Source: Dictyostelium discoideum (Eukaryota). From it: a DNA stretch of 64,000 nt. The translations under genes and the position numbers were made by a program. The notes under the pieces are model-generated. The model was not told the DNA's origin and did no database searches. It saw only the letters and a program-made list of their open reading frames with translations. The DNA is taken from positions 4,544,001-4,608,000 of the forward strand of contig CM000151.3 of NCBI GenBank assembly GCA_000004695.1. The letters run 5' to 3'. Positions 17,337-49,440 of this stretch are shown in pieces (the first letter of the stretch is position 1; the number at the start of each line of letters is the position of its first letter).

Positions 17337-17760
17337 AAAAATTTAATATAAAATTGTAGTTAAACTATTTTACACAATAATGATAAATAAAGTTTGAAAC
17401 AAAAGTGTAATTATAAAAAAATAATTTTTAAACCATTTTTTTTTTTTTTTTTTGGTTTTTTTAAAATAAAATAATTTAATTTTAATCACCCACACATTTA
17501 TCTTCTTTATTAATTAAAGTTTCAGAATTTTAAATACCAAAAAACACACACTCTCAATTACCCCCACCTATCATACATATAACCCATCCTGTTAATTTAA
17601 GAATGTTTCAAATATCACAACATATGGTTTTTAGTCAATTTGATCTTTTCCCACTACCACAACCATAACTACAACTCCTATCTTATTGATTTCATTTTTT
17701 ATTTTAATAATTTTTTTTTTAATTTTTTTGTTAGGCTTTTACCTTTTCTTGCTATTGGTA

Positions 17761-17764
<4 letters not shown>

Positions 17765-17794
<30 letters not shown>
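17765..17794. repeat. (GT)15 dinucleotide microsatellite
   Basis: gtgtgt... run, unusual GC-containing repeat in AT-rich intergenic DNA. Confidence 0.9.
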
Positions 17795-17796
<2 letters not shown>

Positions 17797-18394
17797 GTGT
17801 ATGTATGTTTGTTGTCTCTATAATAATGCTCTATTTCATTATTTTTAATGGAATTTAATAAATTAATTAAATAAAATAAAATAAAAATAAAAAACGATCT
17901 TATCTTTAAATTTAAATAAAGATTCCTAATAAAAAAAATAAAAAAATAAAAAATAAAAAATAAAAAATGTGGTAAATATTGTTATAGTTGTTGGTGTATA
18001 CAATAACTTTATTTTATTTTATTTTTTTTATTATTTATTTAATTTATTTATTTAATTTATTTTCAAAAAAAAAAAAAAAAAAAAATTGTTTTATGGTTTT
18101 TTTTTTTTTTGTTTGTTGGTGTTATAATTATTATTATTATTATTATTATTATTATCAAAGAGGTAAATTAAATAAATTAAATAAAATCTTTAAAAATAAA
18201 AAAAAAAAAAAAATTTATTATTATTTGTTTATTTGATAAAATAAAAAAAAAAATTTATTTAACTGTCTCTTAATTTCATAAAGATATTTTTTTTTTTTTT
18301 TTTTTTAATTATTTTAATTTTTTTTTTTTAATTATTTTAATTTTTTTTTTTTTTTTAAAATTTTTTTTCAAATCAGATTCTTCGTCCGACTGTT

Positions 18395-18427
<33 letters not shown>

Positions 18428-18656
18428 ATTTTTATTATTTTTATTATTTTTTATTATTTTTATTATTTTGTTTTTTTTAATTTACCAATAAGGTAAATAA
18501 AATTTTATTGTATGACATGTTTCTTTTTAAAAGTTAAAAAAAAAATACCTTTTCATATGACAAGTTTATTCTTTTTTCTTTTTTTTTAAATTAGTTTAAT
18601 TATTAAAAAAATTATTTTTTTTATGATATCCAAAAATATCGACCCTATTTGCACCT

Positions 18657-18697
<41 letters not shown>

Positions 18698-19009
18698 CCC
18701 AATTCCTCTTTTTTATTTTGTTTTATTTTTTTTAATTTTTTTTTTTAAAAAATATCACCACCCCAAAACCAAAAAAGATTTTTATTAACACACTTTTATT
18801 TTATATATTTAGTTAGCAATAGTAATAATAGTAATAATAGTAAATTTTTTATTTTTTTATTTTTTTATTTTTTTATTTTTTTTTTTTTATTTAAATTATA
18901 GAAAATAAAAAAAAGTCAATATATATATTTAAAAAAAAACAAAAAAACAAAAAAAATAAAAAAAAATATCAGTAATAATCTTTATATACAATAATAATAA
19001 TAATAAAAA

Positions 19010-19085
<76 letters not shown>

Positions 19086-19184
19086 TTAAGGGATATTAAC
19101 CGTTTTTGTATCTATTGCAAATTCGTTTTTCCCAAATTCTAAAAAAAACAAAAAAAAAAAAAAAAAAAAAAAAAAACTAATAAA

Positions 19185-20306
19185 ATGAGTTCACCACACA
19201 TTGAACTTCACTCACAAAGAACATTATCTCCCCAACCAAGTTCAAATAATTTTGAATTGACAGGAAATAAAAGTTGTGCATTATCAGCTTCTTTAAATGG
19301 TTCCATAGATGATTTAAATAATAACAATAATAACAATAACAATAACAATAACAATAACAATAACAATAACAATAACAATAACAATAACAATAACAATAAC
19401 AATAATAATAACAATAACAATAACAATAATAATGACGGCGATAAAAACGATAAAAAATTACTTATTATAACAAATGCACCAACACCACCATTAACACCTC
19501 CACAACCCACAAAAACACAACAAACATTACTAGAATTAAACCAAAAATTTCAAGAGCAACAACAACAGCAACAACAACAACAACAATTACAAAAACAGAA
19601 TAAACAACAACAATCACAAAAACAACAAGAAGAACCACCATCATCACAACAAGAAGAACCACCATTATCACAACAACAACAAGAACAAGAACAAGAACAA
19701 GAACAAGAACAAGAACAAGAAGAACAATCAAAACAAAAAATAGAAGGAAAAGGAGGGGGAGGAGAGGAAGAGGAGTGTGAAGGAGGAGGAGGAGGAGAGG
19801 GAGAGGGAGAGGAGCAATTTAAAGAGGGTGATGAGGAAGAACACGAGGGTATTGAAATTGATCCAAATCTACCAACAACTGGATATACTGGTAAACGAAG
19901 ATCATCATTACAAATCAATGAAGCATCACCAAAATTAATACAAACACCATCAGTAGATAGAACATTATGTATATTAGATTCATTACCATGTCCAATCTTT
20001 CAAATTGGTATCATTGAGAATACAGAGAATGGTAATATTACATTGACTGGTTTTGCAAATGAAAGATTAACAACACTCTTATCATGTTCATCCAATCTAT
20101 TAGTAGACTCTTTAAAATCAATTCCATCACCACACTACAATACTGTACCATCATTAGAAAGTTGTAATTCAATCCCAATAAATAATTTAGCACCTGGTCT
20201 ATTACCAAATACTGATCCAACAAAAATATTAGATCCATATATTTCATTATATAATAAAAAACAATTAAAAGAACGTTATAGTAATAATAATAATAATACT
20301 AATACC

Positions 20307-37459: not shown

Positions 37460-37540
37460 AGTAAAAAAATGAAAAAATTAAAAAAAAAAAAGATTTAAAT
37501 CACCTTTTTTATTAATTGAATCGTGATTGACACCCACTTT
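37460..37540. repeat. dispersed ~60-80 bp repeat, copy 1 (aaaaagtaaaaaaa...agatttaaatcacctttttt..ttgaatcgtgattgacacccacttt)
   Basis: Near-identical to 39403-39463 (agatttaaatcaccttttttt..ttgaattgtaattggcacccacttt). Both copies sit just 3' of minus-strand genes. Confidence 0.7.
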
Positions 37541-37582
37541 CAATTTTTTTTTATTTTTATTTTTTTTATTTTTTAATAATTG

Positions 37583-38705
37583 TTAATTTAATGAAAGTTT
37601 AATAAATGAACAAAGAATGTTTGGTAAACTTGAAACTTTATCAATTTTAAAATTTGATAATTTAATTAAATTATTCCATTCATTTAAAGTTCTTTCTTTA
37701 CCACCATTTAAAATATTAATTGTATCTATTTAAAATTTAAATTAAAAAATATAATAATTAATAATAATAATTAAAAATAATTAAATTAAATTTAATTTCA
37801 AAAGATACATACGATATTCAATTGAAATTGGAATTGATTTTTTATTTTTATAAATTATATGATCAAATATATAAATACAAACTTCATTTTGATATGAAGA
37901 TTTAATTGATTTATAAATTTTATTTAAAATTTCTAATACTTGATTATCGCTAAACATATGGAATATATATTTAACTAAATAACAATTGCCAATTGGAAAT
38001 GTTTCATCAGTGAAAAAGTTACCCATTATTTCAAAATAACGATTATCTTTATAATTTTTTTCATTATTTTCAATTACTTCTTTTAAATCATAATTAATAC
38101 CTTTTTCAATGATTGAATTGTTTAAATGATATTTATCCAATATTTTCTTAATAGATTCACCTTGAGAACCACCCAAATCAACAATTGTTTTAAAATTACT
38201 AAAATCAACAATTTCTAAAATTGAATCAATTTGAGTTCTAGTGTATTCAGTCAATGTATTGTGAAAATATTTTTTAAGATTTTTTTCTTTATCAATGAAA
38301 TCAAAACCATCATTATAACCACTATTAAAAGTGCCCATTGCTTTTCCAGTTTTAAGACTTTCTTCAATATGTTTAAAATATGGTAATAATGTAACTTGAA
38401 AATATGAATCATTTACCCATGGATACTTATCTGTATCATTAATTAATGTTTCAGAAATTTCAGTATTTGAAAATAGTCTATCAATTTCTTCATCTTCTTT
38501 AAAAATACCCATAGTAGATAATGTTCTCAATAAAACATATAATCCATGCTCATTATATCCATTACATTCTTAATTGTTTAATACTTTTTGAACCATTTTT
38601 TAATTTATTTGGAATTTCTAATTCTAAAATAACTTTTAATGAGTATGATTTTATATAACCAGTTGCAATATCATATATAAAATTTTTAATTTGAATATTT
38701 TCCAT
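37583..38705 (-). CDS. class I SAM-dependent O-methyltransferase (plant COMT-like), with an N-terminal frame discontinuity near 38545 (exons ~38705-37813, 37725-37583)
   Basis: Dimerisation-domain N-terminus (YIKSYSLKVILELEIPNKLKNGSKSIKQL) and ...ECNGYNEHGLYVLLRTLSTMGIF lie in frames offset by 1 with only 5 nt of overlap. SAM motif VDLGGSQG and IFHMFSDNQVLEILNKIYKSI. GTATGT donor at 37812; AATAG acceptor; last exon ...GGKERTLNEWNNLIKLSNFKIDKV...*. Confidence 0.65.

Positions 38706-38878: not shown

Positions 38879-38884
<6 letters not shown>

Positions 38885-38965
<81 letters not shown>
38885..38965. repeat. poly(dT) tract ~80 nt (5' flank of minus-strand O-methyltransferase)
   Basis: Uninterrupted T run; longest homopolymer in window. 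Confidence 0.9.
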
Positions 38966-38989
38966 CAGTTAATTTCCGACCTATTACAT

Positions 38990-39400
38990 CTCCAATTGGT
39001 TGTCAAAGTAATTGGAATTTCATCAAATTCCTATAATGGTATATTTTACTTATTAAATGATAATAAATAGGCAATTTTTATAATTAATAAATGAGGTATG
39101 TCATTATCTTTAATATTATTATTGTTTCAGATTTATGTGTAAACAAATGAGTGAATTTTAAATTTTCAGAATTTAAACTATTTACAAGAATATTATTAAA
39201 ATAATTATCTATTATTCTTTATTTTGAGTAAATAAATTCAATAATCCTAATAAAAATTACCATTCAAAAATTGTAAACCAAAACCATGTAATAATTCACC
39301 CATTGCATCATTTCTAGTAACAGCACCAATACTTTCTATATGACAAAAATTAATAGCTAAAGTAGGTAATCCTATTCTTCCATATTTGAAAGTAGGTAAT
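38990..39400 (-). pseudogene. polyketide-synthase fragment (ketoreductase C-terminal / inter-domain region), degenerate
   Basis: The minus-strand translation GLPTLAINFCHIESIGAVTRNDAMGELLHGFGLQFLNGN then hits stops. It is clearly paralogous to IGLPALAINFGHIGSIGVVTRNDAISELLHGFGLQSMNGN in the 48.9-kb PKS remnant. No start codon and multiple stops downstream. Confidence 0.5.
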
Positions 39401-39402
39401 AA

Positions 39403-39463
39403 AAAGTAAAAAAAACAAGATTTAAATCACCTTTTTTTATTTTTGAATTGTAATTGGCACCCA
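39403..39463. repeat. dispersed repeat, copy 2 (see 37460-37540)
   Basis: Same core with 2-3 substitutions; lies between the PKS fragment and the Ran-like gene 3' end. Confidence 0.7.
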
Positions 39464-39589
39464 CTTTTATTTTTTTATTTATTATTTTTATTATTATTTT
39501 TATTATTTTTATTATTATTTTTATTATTATTTTTGTTATTATTTTTGTTATTATTTTTATTATTATTATTTTTATTATTATTAATCAGT

Positions 39590-40764
39590 TTAAGACAATG
39601 AAAAAGAATTTTTAAAATCAGAATTTAAATCATCTGTATTATAAAATGTTAATGGTATTGTTTTAACCACTTCAATACTTTCATTTTTAAATGACTCTTT
39701 TTCTTTTTCTTTTTGTTCCTCTTCTTTTTTTTCTTCTTTTTTTTCTTCCTCTTTTTCTTTTTCTTCATGATCTTGGGCTTTGGATGTTAAATGAAAATGA
39801 TAATCTGGTGATGGAATTAAGTCAACATTATCATTACCACTTAAAAGTCTGATTAATTTGAGGAATGGTTTTTCAAGATTAAAATTTGTTCTAACCGATA
39901 GTTCAAAATATGAAATATTCTTTTTACGATGAAATATAATCTGACTTGGGTTAATTCTTTTACCCATTGATTCTACTTTATTACCAACTAAAACCATTGG
40001 AACCACCTTACCTGTTATTCTTAATAATTCATTAAACCAATCGTTAACGCTTCTATATGATTCTCTTGAACAAACATCAAACATTATAATTGCACATTCC
40101 GCTCCAGTCCTATTACAATAATATTAATTAATATTAATATTAATACAATAAATGTTATTTTTTTATATTTATAGTGAATGGAGAGTGTGAGAGTGAGAGA
40201 GAGAGAGAGTGAGTGAGGTATACTTACATATAATCATCTCTCATAGCTCCAGGTAATCTAGTAAAAGCCATATCCCAAATACTGAAATTAACATCACCAA
40301 TAGTTGTTTTAAAATTAAATTTATGAACACTACAACCAAAAGTTGCTAAATAAAAATAAATAAAAATAAAAATATTGGTTATTATTATTTTGGACTGATA
40401 GTTTAATTTAAATTAAAGAGAATAATAAACCTACCAACATATTGAGTTTCAAATTCACCTGTTAAAAGTCTATTTATATAGGTGGACTAATAATAATATG
40501 ATATTAGTATATTTAAATATATTTGAAAAAGTTTATATATATAAAACCTACTTTACCAACTCCACCATCTCCAATTAATACTAATTTAATTTCTTTAGTA
40601 TTGTCAAATTTTTTAACTACTGGTAATGATGGTTTATTTTTTGATGATGATAATCCCAATGAAAATTGCGCACTTGATGGCGATGCTGCTGTTGTTGTTT
40701 TTGGTGTTCCAAAATCAAATGGTGGTGCTGTTGGTGGTGGTCCAAATTCAAATAGTGATGCTGT

Positions 40765-40861
<97 letters not shown>

Positions 40862-42068
40862 CCCAATCCAAACGGTGAACTTAATGGTGATGGTGCTGTT
40901 GGTGAACCCGATCCAAATGATGGCGTACTTGGTGGTACCAATCCAAATAATTCTTGTTCTATTTTTGTAATTTGTCCATATCTAAATGGTGGTGCTGTTG
41001 ATGGTGATGCTGTTGTTGTTGTTGTTGCTACTGTGTTTGATGATCCCGATTCAAATGATGGTGCTGTTGGTGATCCCGATCCAAATGATGGCGTACTTGG
41101 TGGTACCAATCCAAATAATTCCTGTTCTATTTTTGTAATTGGTCTATATCTAACTGGTGGTGCTGTTGGTGTTGATGCTGTTGTTGATGCTGTTGTTGTT
41201 GTTGTTGTTGTTGCTACTGTGTTTGATGATCCACCAAATCCCGATCCAAATGATGGTGCTGTTGGTGATCCCGATCCAAATGATGGCGTACTTGGTGGTC
41301 CAAATCTAAATAATTCTTCTTCTATTTTTGTAATTGATCCATATCCAAATGGTGATGCTGTTGATGTTGATGCTGTTGTTGTTGTCGTTGTTGCTGCTAC
41401 TGTGTTTGATGATCCACCAAATCCTAATGAAAATGCATCTCCTGATGGTAAAAGTGGAAGAGGTGAAACAAAACGAACGTTATCATTACCACTTAATATT
41501 TTGATTAATTGAATGAATGGTGTTTCAAATTTATAATTTGATTTACTTGAAATTTCACAATAGTGAATATTCTTACTACGATGAAAATTAATTTCCTTTG
41601 CTTTAACTTTACGATCTTTGATATCAACTTTATTACCAACTAAAATAATTGGTATATTATTACCTAATTCCTTTGTTAATTCATTAAACCAACTTGGTAC
41701 ATTCCTATATGAAACTCTTGAAGAAACATCAAACATAATAATTGCACATTGACTTCCAACACTATTATAATATATATATAATTAAATATTTTAATATATA
41801 TATATATATATATATACTTTTAATTATGAATTTTTTAAAATAAACTTACTAATATAAATGTCTAAATACTTCAAATTTTTCATCACCACAAGTATCCCAA
41901 ATATCAAAATTAACATTGCCGATATTAGTGTAAAGAATTAGATTACTTAGTTCTACTCCAACCGTAGCTATATTTTTATTTTATTTTTTTTATGTTTTTA
42001 TAATTAATAAAAATAAAAAAAAAGTTAACTATTTTCATAATAATAGTAATAATAATAATAATAATAAC

Positions 42069-42127
<59 letters not shown>

Positions 42128-42673
42128 TGATTTTAATGATACTTACGAATATGGCTTTTTTGAAATTCGCCTATTATATGACGTTTTAAAAATGTAGTCT
42201 AATTAATTCATGATAATAATAATAATAATTAATAATTAATAATTAAAAATGTAAAAATAATAATAAACAATTACTTTACCTTACCAACACCACTATCACC
42301 AACTAATATTAATTTGATGGGTCCATTTTTCTGTGTATTTTTTATGTTTTATGTGTATGTTAGTATATATATTTTTTTTTTTTTTATATTTAATGAAATA
42401 AATAATTTATTTTTAAAAATATATATATATATATATATATATAATTTACAATATCAATTGGTTTAATATTTTGATAAGCTTTTTGTTCAATTGGACTATG
42501 ATCTTCATCCTCAATTGGTATTTGTTCTCCTATTGCTTTTTCATAAGATGAAAGTAGCTCCGAATCAATATCACTAATATTAAATGTTGACTAAAAGTAA
42601 GAGAGTATTTTTAAAAAAAAAAAAAAAAAATTAATAAAAAATATTAATAAAAAATATTTTAAAATGGTAATAT

Positions 42674-47176: not shown

Positions 47177-47667
47177 ATTAAAAATAAATAAAAAATTGTA
47201 CTATATTAAATGATTTACCAAAATAGAACTCAAATACTCAAACATGGTTATTTGTAACAAAATAATAAAAAAAAAAAAAATTAAAATAAATAAAATAAAA
47301 TTAAATTAAATAAAATTTTTAAATAAAAAAACTAATATTAAAAAATAAAAAAATTATTTGTTCAAAAAAAAATGTTTTGTTGACTTAATTTCATCACCAG
47401 ATTCTCAATTTAATTAACATCATCATCTTTATTCAAAGCCCAAGGTCATGAAGAAAAAATGAAAAGAAAAAAATGAAGAAAAAAAAAAAAGAAAAAAAAA
47501 AAGAATATTTAAAAAAAAATGAAAATATTTCCATGATTAATACAATACCATTAACATTTTATAATCTAGATGATTTAAAATCAGATTTTAAAAATTCTTT
47601 TTCCTTGTTGTCATAACAAATTAATAATTTTTATAGAAAAGATAATAATAAATAATAAATAATAATA

Positions 47668-47709
<42 letters not shown>

Positions 47710-47974
47710 AAATTAATAGTAATTATAAAATAAAAAATAAATAACATTTAATCTAATTTCAAATACTCATTTTCTAACAAGGAATCTGTGATTTTTATAA
47801 TAGTAAAAAATTAAAATATAATACACAACTGTATATCAACATACACCCTCCCCCTCATATCTCATACGATTATTGAGAATAAGTTGAAATGTATGTAAAT
47901 TTATATATAAATAAATATATATATTTTCAAAATGATATTTTTATTATTTTATTTTGTTTTTTAAAAAATAAAAT

Positions 47975-49440
47975 GCAAATGGAGTTTGACAATAAAAGTA
48001 AAAGCAAATATCAAAATGATGTTGCCATTATTGGGTTGGGTTTTAGGTTAACTGGTAACTCAAACTCACCCAAATTATTTTGGTTTGTATTTTACTTTTA
48101 AAAAAACCACACACATATATAAAATATAAAATAATATTAATAATTTGATAATATTATAATCATAGGAATAATTTAATTAATAAATTTGATGGCGTTGTTG
48201 AAATTGATAGATGGAGTAAAAACTATTATTTAAATAATGAAATTAAAAATCATCAAGGTGGTTTAATATCATTAGAAGAACAAATAAAAATGTTTGATCC
48301 ACTTTTCTTTTCAATTCCACCATCTGATGCTGAAACAATTGATCCACAACAAAGACTACTTTTAAAATGTATTTATAATAATTATATATACTTAATGATT
48401 TTTATATAATATATATATATATATATATTAATTATTTTATAATATGATAGGTGTTTGGGAAGGATTTGAAGATGCAAATATTGATCCAATTAAATTACGT
48501 GGTAGTAATACAAGCGTTTACATTGGTTTGTTTATCCACAAATGATTATTTTAATAATTTAAAAAATACAAAGGAAACCTTAACTAATGTATTTGGATCA
48601 TCAGCACACAGTGAATCAAATAGAATTAGTTATTGTTATGATTTTAGAGGTCAATCAATTCACGCCAAAGAGCTTTTTTGAAAAGAAGAATAAAAAACAT
48701 TAAAAACCAAAAAAACTTGAAAAGCATAAAAACTTTAGGTTGTATTTATCTTCATCAACTATCATTAAAATATAATTGGAAATTAAAGAATTTTATAATT
48801 CCATCATCTATATCATCTCTATTTGGTGTTCAAAATCAATGTGGTTATGTTAGTGCTAATTGTATTAGATAGTTTTGCAAAGTATAGAAGATCAATTGGT
48901 TTACCTGCTTTGGCTATTAATTTTGGTCATATTGGAAGTATTGGTGTAGTTACTCGAAATGATGCAATCAGTGAATTATTGCATGGCTTTGGTTTGCAAT
49001 CTATGAATGGTAATATTTTGTTAGGTTCATCAGATTTATTTAGTCAAAATAAAGAAATAATTGATAATGATTATAGTAATATTATTGTAAGCAGTTTAAA
49101 TTTTGAAAATTTAAAATTCAGTCATTTGTTTACAAATAAATCTGCTTTTAAACTTAATTCAATATCAAATAATAATAATATCTATGGTAATAACAATAAT
49201 AATAATAATAGTAAGGATATATATCTCAATTGGTAATTTCAAAAATTGACTATTTATTATCAATTAATTAATAAAATATTAATTCAAATATACCATTATC
49301 AGAATTTGGCGGAGATAGTTCAATAATTACTCAAATTAAAAATTGGTTAGATAAATTTAAAAATAACCACTTTACAATATCTGAAATTCAAAAATATTCA
49401 ATTAATGATATAATTAAAAAATTAATAATTAACAAATAAG
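47975..49440 (+). pseudogene. polyketide synthase remnant: KS N-terminal fragment fused to KR C-terminal region and ACP, with frameshift(s) and a large internal deletion
   Basis: KS start MQMEFDNKSKSKYQNDVAIIGLGFRLTGNSNSPKLFW; then (GTTTGT...AG intron) [21 protein letters not shown]...[43 protein letters not shown] frame slip follows, then [48 protein letters not shown]. Next come KR C-terminal/linker YRRSIGLPALAINFGHIGSIGVVTRNDAISELLHGFGLQSMNGNILLGSSDLF and an ACP-like EFGGDSSIITQIKNWLDKF...*. AT, DH and most of KS/KR are missing. Confidence 0.6.

Follow-up and report, generated by a model that had tools for sequence, protein, structure and literature searches.

A decayed PKS fragment between a tandem Ran-like gene and an O-methyltransferase gene of Dictyostelium discoideum, and further decay states of its locus in close relatives

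The DNA analysed here, called the window throughout, is a stretch of 64,000 nucleotides from D. discoideum that is very AT-rich, with about 22% G+C. It belongs to chromosome 2 of strain AX4, since the twinfilin (DDB_G0274437) and ribosomal protein uL2/L8 of AX4 match its reconstructed proteins exactly. Two groups of features near 39 kb and 48 kb concern us, and all coordinates are those of the window unless another sequence is named (L008 is the corresponding locus in the wild-isolate assembly GCA_054859355.1).

37473 to 37585, no strand: R, the ancestral repeat copy, just 3' of the O-methyltransferase stop codon; core 37491-37540, orthologue at L008 18011-18078 (92%).
37594 to 38705, minus strand: O-methyltransferase gene; coding blocks 38705-37813 and 37725-37594, intron 37812-37726.
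38884 to 38965, no strand: 82 consecutive T, poly(A) when read on the gene strand, with copy A on one side and the O-methyltransferase start on the other; the longest homopolymer of the window.
38975 to 39404, minus strand: copy A, a PKS pseudogene fragment (end of the KR domain, KR-ACP linker, first half of the ACP), delimited by blastn to copy B and to the intact wild-isolate PKS.
39247 to 39376, minus strand: the still-open piece of copy A's original frame (...IGLPTLAINF...NGNFY, then stop), which is the last exon of a GenBank automated model.
39405 to 39511, no strand: R', a copy of R at the putative 5' deletion junction of copy A; core 39418-39467, placed by blastn and the junction sequences.
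39590 to 42330, minus strand: tandem Ran-like GTPase gene, directly upstream of copy A; its second unit corresponds to the complete gene whose tail was co-duplicated.
47378 to 47616, plus strand: truncated Ran-like 3' end, which bounds the site-B unit of the duplication on its upstream side (inverted repeat I1).
47974 to 49440, plus strand: copy B, the larger PKS remnant, from Pfam, alignment and gene models P0001, P0123 and P0215.

Site A is the interval between the Ran-like gene and an EF-hand gene, in which copy A lies; site B is the position between rpl8 and a PA14 gene, in which copy B lies.

The peptide GLPTLAINFCHIESIGAVTRNDAMGELLHGFGLQFLNGN, which an earlier note on this DNA had read as derived from a PKS, was found on the minus strand at 39372-39256. 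As to origin the note was right, since the fragment aligns to the KR C-terminus, the linker and the ACP of an intact PKS that occupies the orthologous site in GCA_054859355.1, with 83.3% identity over 282 nt (L008 17229-17510, E 1e-76). Copy A measures about 430 bp, or about 6% of the PKS gene, and corresponds by alignment to approximately residues 2352-2515 of the intact 2549-residue orthologue; its KR part consists of the last ~20 residues of the domain, beginning near position 157 of the 180 in the KR profile. The PKSs of D. purpureum match it weakly (tblastn E 8e-4 to 9e-3). Comparison with PKS KR domains gave a divided answer: the KR end of the intact PKS aligns, but copy A alone shows no Pfam domain when its KR-end/linker translation is searched (83 residues, frameshift-corrected), which we attribute to the shortness of the fragment rather than to its being unrelated. 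Beyond copies A and B, no further PKS-derived sequence was detectable within the window.

The earlier note had the translation running into stops. A TAG does close the frame at 39249-39247, but the homology goes on for about 280 bases, to about 38975, and beyond this first stop, compared with copy B, copy A has twice lost a single nucleotide and has further gaps of 22, 26 and 12 nt. Translated in three frames, copy A is broken by frameshifts and several stops and does not amount to a functional PKS. The carrier-serine motif, for which (G/L/F)DS was taken as diagnostic, reads GGDS in copy B and in the intact gene, and DEIP in copy A. In the AX2-like assembly GCA_054883475.1, copy A is 100% identical, an agreement that is uninformative at so small a distance; the window region is 99.7% identical to that assembly.

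Copy B, on the opposite strand, retains both ends of the gene. Its KS N-terminus (47974-48680) has two introns and one frameshift, covers positions 2-169 of the 252 in the Pfam ketoacyl-synt profile and ends just before the active-site Cys, while its KR C-terminus, linker and ACP (48729-49440) have one frameshift and two in-frame stops, both ACP-proximal, and cover KR positions 112-178 of 180. Measured against the D. purpureum PKS DICPUDRAFT_148809, it represents residues 13-169 and 2265-2492, and about 2095 codons between them are missing. Copy B has been annotated as protein-coding in the form of ACTFIT_003575 (154 residues), ACTFIT_003576 (166 residues) and an older 261-residue UniParc entry, UPI00004E3B33; the “intron” of the 166-residue model is former coding sequence that now holds two stops. 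Two matches elsewhere were considered as conserved small proteins and rejected: the 182-residue D. purpureum match is actually the split-off end of a full PKS gene model, and the D. dimigraforme match is likewise the split-off end of a PKS gene model.

The two remnants are related as the earlier note had proposed. Its estimate of about 75% identity between the 39-kb peptide and the 48.9-kb remnant compares with 31 of 39 residues (79%) against the open reading frame at 48823-49236 (BLASTP E 3e-20), and the comparison of the two regions at the DNA level, which the note had proposed as a check, aligns 39128-39404 with 49144-48860 at 83.5% over 285 nt (E 7.6e-79), with a second block, 39041-39099 against 49279-49221, at 83%. 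The 3' end of the Ran-like gene is duplicated as well (39466-39827 against 47741-47378, 77% over 386 nt, E 3e-77), and in an inverted-repeat scan of the window the repeats I1, I2 and I19 cover the copy A/copy B duplication. The duplicated unit thus comprises the Ran-like tail and the PKS, in the same order and in opposite orientation. The segmental duplication suggested in the note is therefore real, inverted, and wider than the PKS in that it takes in the Ran-like tail, but the 60-bp repeat that had been cited for it lies outside the duplication between 39 kb and 49 kb.

That repeat is itself real and present in exactly two window copies, where none would be expected by chance. In full, R (37473-37585) and R' (as aligned by blastn, 39401-39511) are 82.6% identical, and R' sits exactly at the junction, where homology to the Ran-like flank ends (39467) and homology to the PKS begins (39404). 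Only one copy of R exists at the loci of GCA_054859355.1 (L008) and of a D. cf. discoideum assembly (L011), and its second copy, R', has so far been found only in AX4/AX2-type sequences. Rfam at gathering thresholds over the whole window and a tRNA scan gave no match, so the repeat is neither a known RNA nor a tRNA-associated element. The T run on the other side of copy A is 82 nt long in the window and 36 nt in GCA_054883475.1; homopolymer runs of at least 30 nt occur 22 times in the window.

The O-methyltransferase gene downstream of copy A has a +1 frameshift after about codon 45 (near 38568, within 38540-38600), at a place with no space for an intron. A one-base correction raises the score of the Dimerisation domain from 25.3 to 35.7 bits and extends Methyltransf_2 to positions 1-209 of 210, the domain sequence being otherwise complete. 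Because of the frameshift, and because its correction improves the domain scores, the O-methyltransferase, the partner of the PKS, also looks inactivated in this sequence, although in this one sequence the frameshift could be either a true inactivating mutation or a reference error. The reconstructed O-methyltransferases have no exact match in the protein collection, nor is the 47-residue N-terminal open reading frame on record.

The Ran-like gene on the other flank has two units, whose reading frames suggest a single gene. From the last exon of unit one (open reading frame 40513-41736) translation continues in frame to the P-loop exon of unit two, and unit two lacks a separate start codon. 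The linker between them, of about 300 residues, is rich in Thr, Ser and Pro and built of repeats with SFGSG motifs; within it, three tandem units of about 170-195 bp (40875-41408, 84-88% identical) encode the repeated PSTPSFGSGSPTAPSF segment, with a long run of Ser after them, at about 40750-40860. In the second unit, the G3 (DMAFT for DTAGQ) and G4 (NKVE) motifs are degenerate. Two assemblies annotate the gene as single proteins of 683 and 740 residues with two Ras-type domains, and a third splits it into 123 and 615 residues. In GCA_054883475.1, a 665-residue model (39247-41736, equivalent to 422-2911 of the locus sequence L001) begins within the first Ran-like unit and terminates in copy A, and another model, of 121 residues, covers the N-terminal half of that unit; this annotation is probably both mis-split and chimeric. 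Logan contigs that match the Ran-like open reading frame are unspliced genomic DNA and have no bearing on transcripts.

The clearest evidence on what copy A once was comes from long-read assemblies of discoideum-clade isolates (PMC12745789), in which the D. discoideum wild isolates form macrocysts with AX2 (PMC12745789). In GCA_054859355.1, labelled D. discoideum, site A holds a full-length PKS of 2549 residues in the interval from the Ran-like gene to the EF-hand gene. It consists of two short 5' exons and one uninterrupted open reading frame of 2453 codons (L008 10001-17830), and its Pfam domains follow the order KS, KS_C, AT, MT, ADH_N/ADH_zinc_N_2, KR, ACP, that is, KS-AT-cMT-ER-KR-ACP; the existing annotation ACTFIW_005233 represents an N-terminal piece of it. 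Its stop codon is followed directly by a 127-nt homologue of O-methyltransferase exon 3 (95% identical to the window), after which come R and the EF-hand gene. The order of the flanks is that of the window, where the PKS slot is taken by copy A, the 82 T and the complete O-methyltransferase. An intact orthologue of the relic thus stands at the same syntenic position in a related genome, and over the shared region copy B is 89% and copy A 83% identical to it.

Site B of the same assembly, adjoining rpl8, has a second full-length PKS that is 93-95% identical to the first over about 7.8 kb. A 1.8-kb insertion (17611-19422 of the locus sequence L013) with a predicted gene of 128 residues splits this PKS between the KS and AT regions. 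Each of the two wild-isolate copies is only 83-89% identical to the AX4 remnants, and their closer likeness to each other suggests, on sequence grounds, gene conversion between the inverted copies. Inversion of the PA14/Ran-like segment that lies between such inverted repeats could also occur.

Elsewhere in the clade the same locus is found in other conditions. An inverted copy of Ran-like tail plus PKS adjoins rpl8 in all D. discoideum assemblies examined, and each of the two sites is occupied in four assemblies, three of D. discoideum and one of D. cf. discoideum. In GCA_054859385.1 the copy at rpl8 (L018) is a 6.3-kb PKS with many frameshifts and a 1.3-kb deletion, with a Ran-like tail fragment upstream. 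In one D. cf. discoideum assembly (L011), site A has 425 bp from the middle of the PKS fused to the 3' half (400 bp) of the O-methyltransferase, and about 450 bp of PKS survive at site B; the other retains O-methyltransferase exon 3 alone, and its site-B PKS is gone. Site B alone is therefore seen full-length but interrupted, as a 6.3-kb pseudogene, as the 1.47-kb remnant of the window, as about 450 bp, and as nothing, and the locus as a whole shows at least five different decay states among close relatives. None of the Ran-like gene, the PKS and the O-methyltransferase was found at the locus in two D. citrinum assemblies and D. dimigraforme (L014-L016), where the gene order is rpl8, copine, PA14, EF-hand. 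The copine gene of these species lies between rpl8 and PA14 (about 12100-14200 of L014-L016), in the slot that the discoideum clade fills with PKS copy B or its remnants; no copine gene is annotated in the rpl8-PA14 slot of that clade, as compared with 47.2-49.6 kb of the window.

Comparison between assemblies also bears out the proposal of a decayed PKS/O-methyltransferase cluster. The PKS followed by the O-methyltransferase, adjacent and on the same strand, is found in three independent decay states (the window, L008 and L011), and the two genes are intact together in none of the genomes examined. These arrangements support the view that the O-methyltransferase is a former downstream partner of the PKS. 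A literature search on PKS/O-methyltransferase pairing in Dictyostelium, which the earlier note had described as frequent, returned nothing usable.

To compare rates, the two copies and the intact gene were aligned over 351 sites, and changes were polarised by majority rule. Unique changes number 40 in copy A, 12 in copy B and 13 in the intact gene, so that the copy A branch has evolved about three times faster than its relatives. By a simple counting method on about 100-121 codons, which makes all codon tests indicative only, the copy A branch has 13 synonymous and 33 non-synonymous changes (omega ~0.61, below 1 and not different from neutral, p = 0.13), and the copy B branch has omega ~0.32 (p = 0.04). 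The pairwise Ka/Ks between copies A and B is 0.38, which we attribute to the functional period of the genes and to the slower B lineage. As far as such indicative tests go, the pattern of substitution in copy A is compatible with neutrality. With D. purpureum proteins as outgroup, three changes are possibly shared by copies A and B, and one or two by copy B and the intact gene.

Together, these observations suggest that copy A is a remnant without function, and that the gene from which it derives, a highly reducing type I iterative PKS, once stood between the tandem Ran-like gene and the O-methyltransferase gene, a reading to which we assign a probability of roughly 0.9. The locus may be reconstructed as follows. 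Between its PA14 and EF-hand genes, the discoideum clade would have gained a block composed of the tandem Ran-like gene, the PKS and the O-methyltransferase. An inverted duplication would then have placed a copy of the second Ran-like unit's 3' end, the intergenic DNA and the PKS on that side of the PA14 gene which faces rpl8, and different parts would subsequently have been lost in different lineages. Site A would be the source copy, because it adjoins a complete Ran-like gene and the O-methyltransferase, and site B has a truncated Ran-like tail only. In the AX4/AX2 lineage, about 8.1 kb of intergenic DNA and most of the PKS (equivalent to L008 9128-17228) would have been deleted and replaced by about 65-110 nt (39405-39511), namely R', as a templated insertion put at 85-110 nt and copied from 1.9 kb downstream, and copy A would thereafter have drifted neutrally. 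The junction at copy A looks like a deletion repaired by templated insertion, a mechanism that we infer from the position and likeness of the two repeat copies, and the 82.6% identity between R and R' would make the event an old one. The decay of copy A is ordinary gene decay, since a wild isolate has kept the gene in full length at this position, and the locus shows several stages of it.

Three other accounts of copy A have to be weighed against this relic at its ancestral site. Since copy B is nearer than copy A to the intact wild-isolate gene over the shared region (89% versus 83%), site B at 49 kb might be taken for the original gene, and copy A for a secondary, partial copy of an already decayed remnant. 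We consider this very unlikely. The intact gene of the wild isolate is at site A, the units at site B have a truncated Ran-like tail only and those at site A the whole Ran-like gene and the O-methyltransferase, and GCA_054859355.1 has multi-kilobase copies at both sites, which means that the duplication involved a full-length gene; that copy A is less similar follows from a branch roughly three times as long. The layout on the gene strand, a 5'-truncated copy followed by A82, might also suggest a processed pseudogene, retrotransposed from the PKS mRNA. Copy A is, however, at the ancestral position, with the same flanks as the intact orthologue, and it ends about 130 nt before the PKS stop codon, without a true mRNA 3' end or 3' UTR; some 25 unrelated bases separate it from the A-run, and that run is of variable length (82 versus 36) in a window with 22 runs of at least 30 nt. 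The ancestral site, the absent mRNA 3' end and a variable homopolymer of a kind common in this genome lead us to reject a retrocopy origin, to which we give virtually no chance.

The remaining account grants the PKS ancestry of copy A and gives it a new use, its 42-codon open frame having been recruited as the C-terminal exon of the tandem Ran-like gene (...NSFSL-IGLPTLAINF...NGNFY). The 665-residue model of GCA_054883475.1 does end exactly at the stop of the copy A frame (39247), one unique GT-AG exon chain gives 665 residues (junction 39597/39376), and copy A is identical in two lab-type assemblies. That the model ends in this frame means that an annotation pipeline treated copy A as coding. 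The intron required, however, would use a GTCTTA donor, which we take to be non-consensus, 4 nt before the Ran-like gene's own TAA stop. For this gene, the models of three further assemblies all close at the native stop codon, and the duplicated tail fragment has preserved the native C-terminal tail, ...TIPLTFYN(T/L)DDL(N/K)SDFKNSFSL(L)S. The recruited exon would contribute 42 KR/linker residues without a fold of their own, the substitutions on the copy A branch look neutral, and the reconstructed 665-residue protein is not in the protein collection. We regard recruitment as highly improbable and treat the 665-residue model as an annotation artefact. If it were true, a signalling protein would have received coding sequence from a dead biosynthetic gene, and this in no lineage but that of the lab strains. 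For copy A as a relic we see no evidence of function; going by its position, we infer that it serves at most as a spacer between the Ran-like 3' end and the O-methyltransferase promoter.

PKS genes diversify and turn over fast between Dictyostelium species (PMC3188802), and copy A taken alone is ordinary, another relic in a fast-turnover family. The interest of the locus lies rather in the loss, by AX4/AX2, of a PKS which a wild isolate of D. discoideum has kept intact. The locus offers natural knock-outs for asking what role that polyketide has, and the reference strain under-represents the biosynthetic genes of the species. The comparison also flags problems of annotation, in that dead fragments are entered as hypothetical proteins and one gene model is probably chimeric.

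Copy A belongs to a known kind, the relic pseudogene fragment, and is a small addition to it. Five pseudogenes interrupted by stop codons were counted among the D. discoideum PKS genes in a 2022 paper (PMC9618038). Like copy A, the annotated pseudogenes are inactivated type I iterative PKSs of the lab strain, with stops and frameshifts in former coding sequence; unlike them, copy A is not a near-full-length gene with few stops but a 430-bp terminal scrap. The PKS of GCA_054859355.1 shares its position and flanks with copy A, as well as 83% nucleotide identity over the KR end, linker and ACP, and differs in being intact, whereas copy A is frameshifted and lacks the first ~92% and the last ~130 nt. 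Outside the discoideum clade, the closest intact PKS is D. purpureum DICPUDRAFT_148809 (F0ZC24, 2500 residues, one of three tandem genes), with 72-80% identity to the KS N-terminus of copy B and 52-70% to its KR/ACP end; its direct match to copy A is weak (E 0.009), and no synteny was detected between the window and the D. purpureum trio. Within D. discoideum, an exhaustive search gave Pks21 (DDB_G0282029) as the best intact paralogue, and since its identity in the KR-end/linker region is only 41-47%, nothing close to the lost PKS remains functional in the lab strain.
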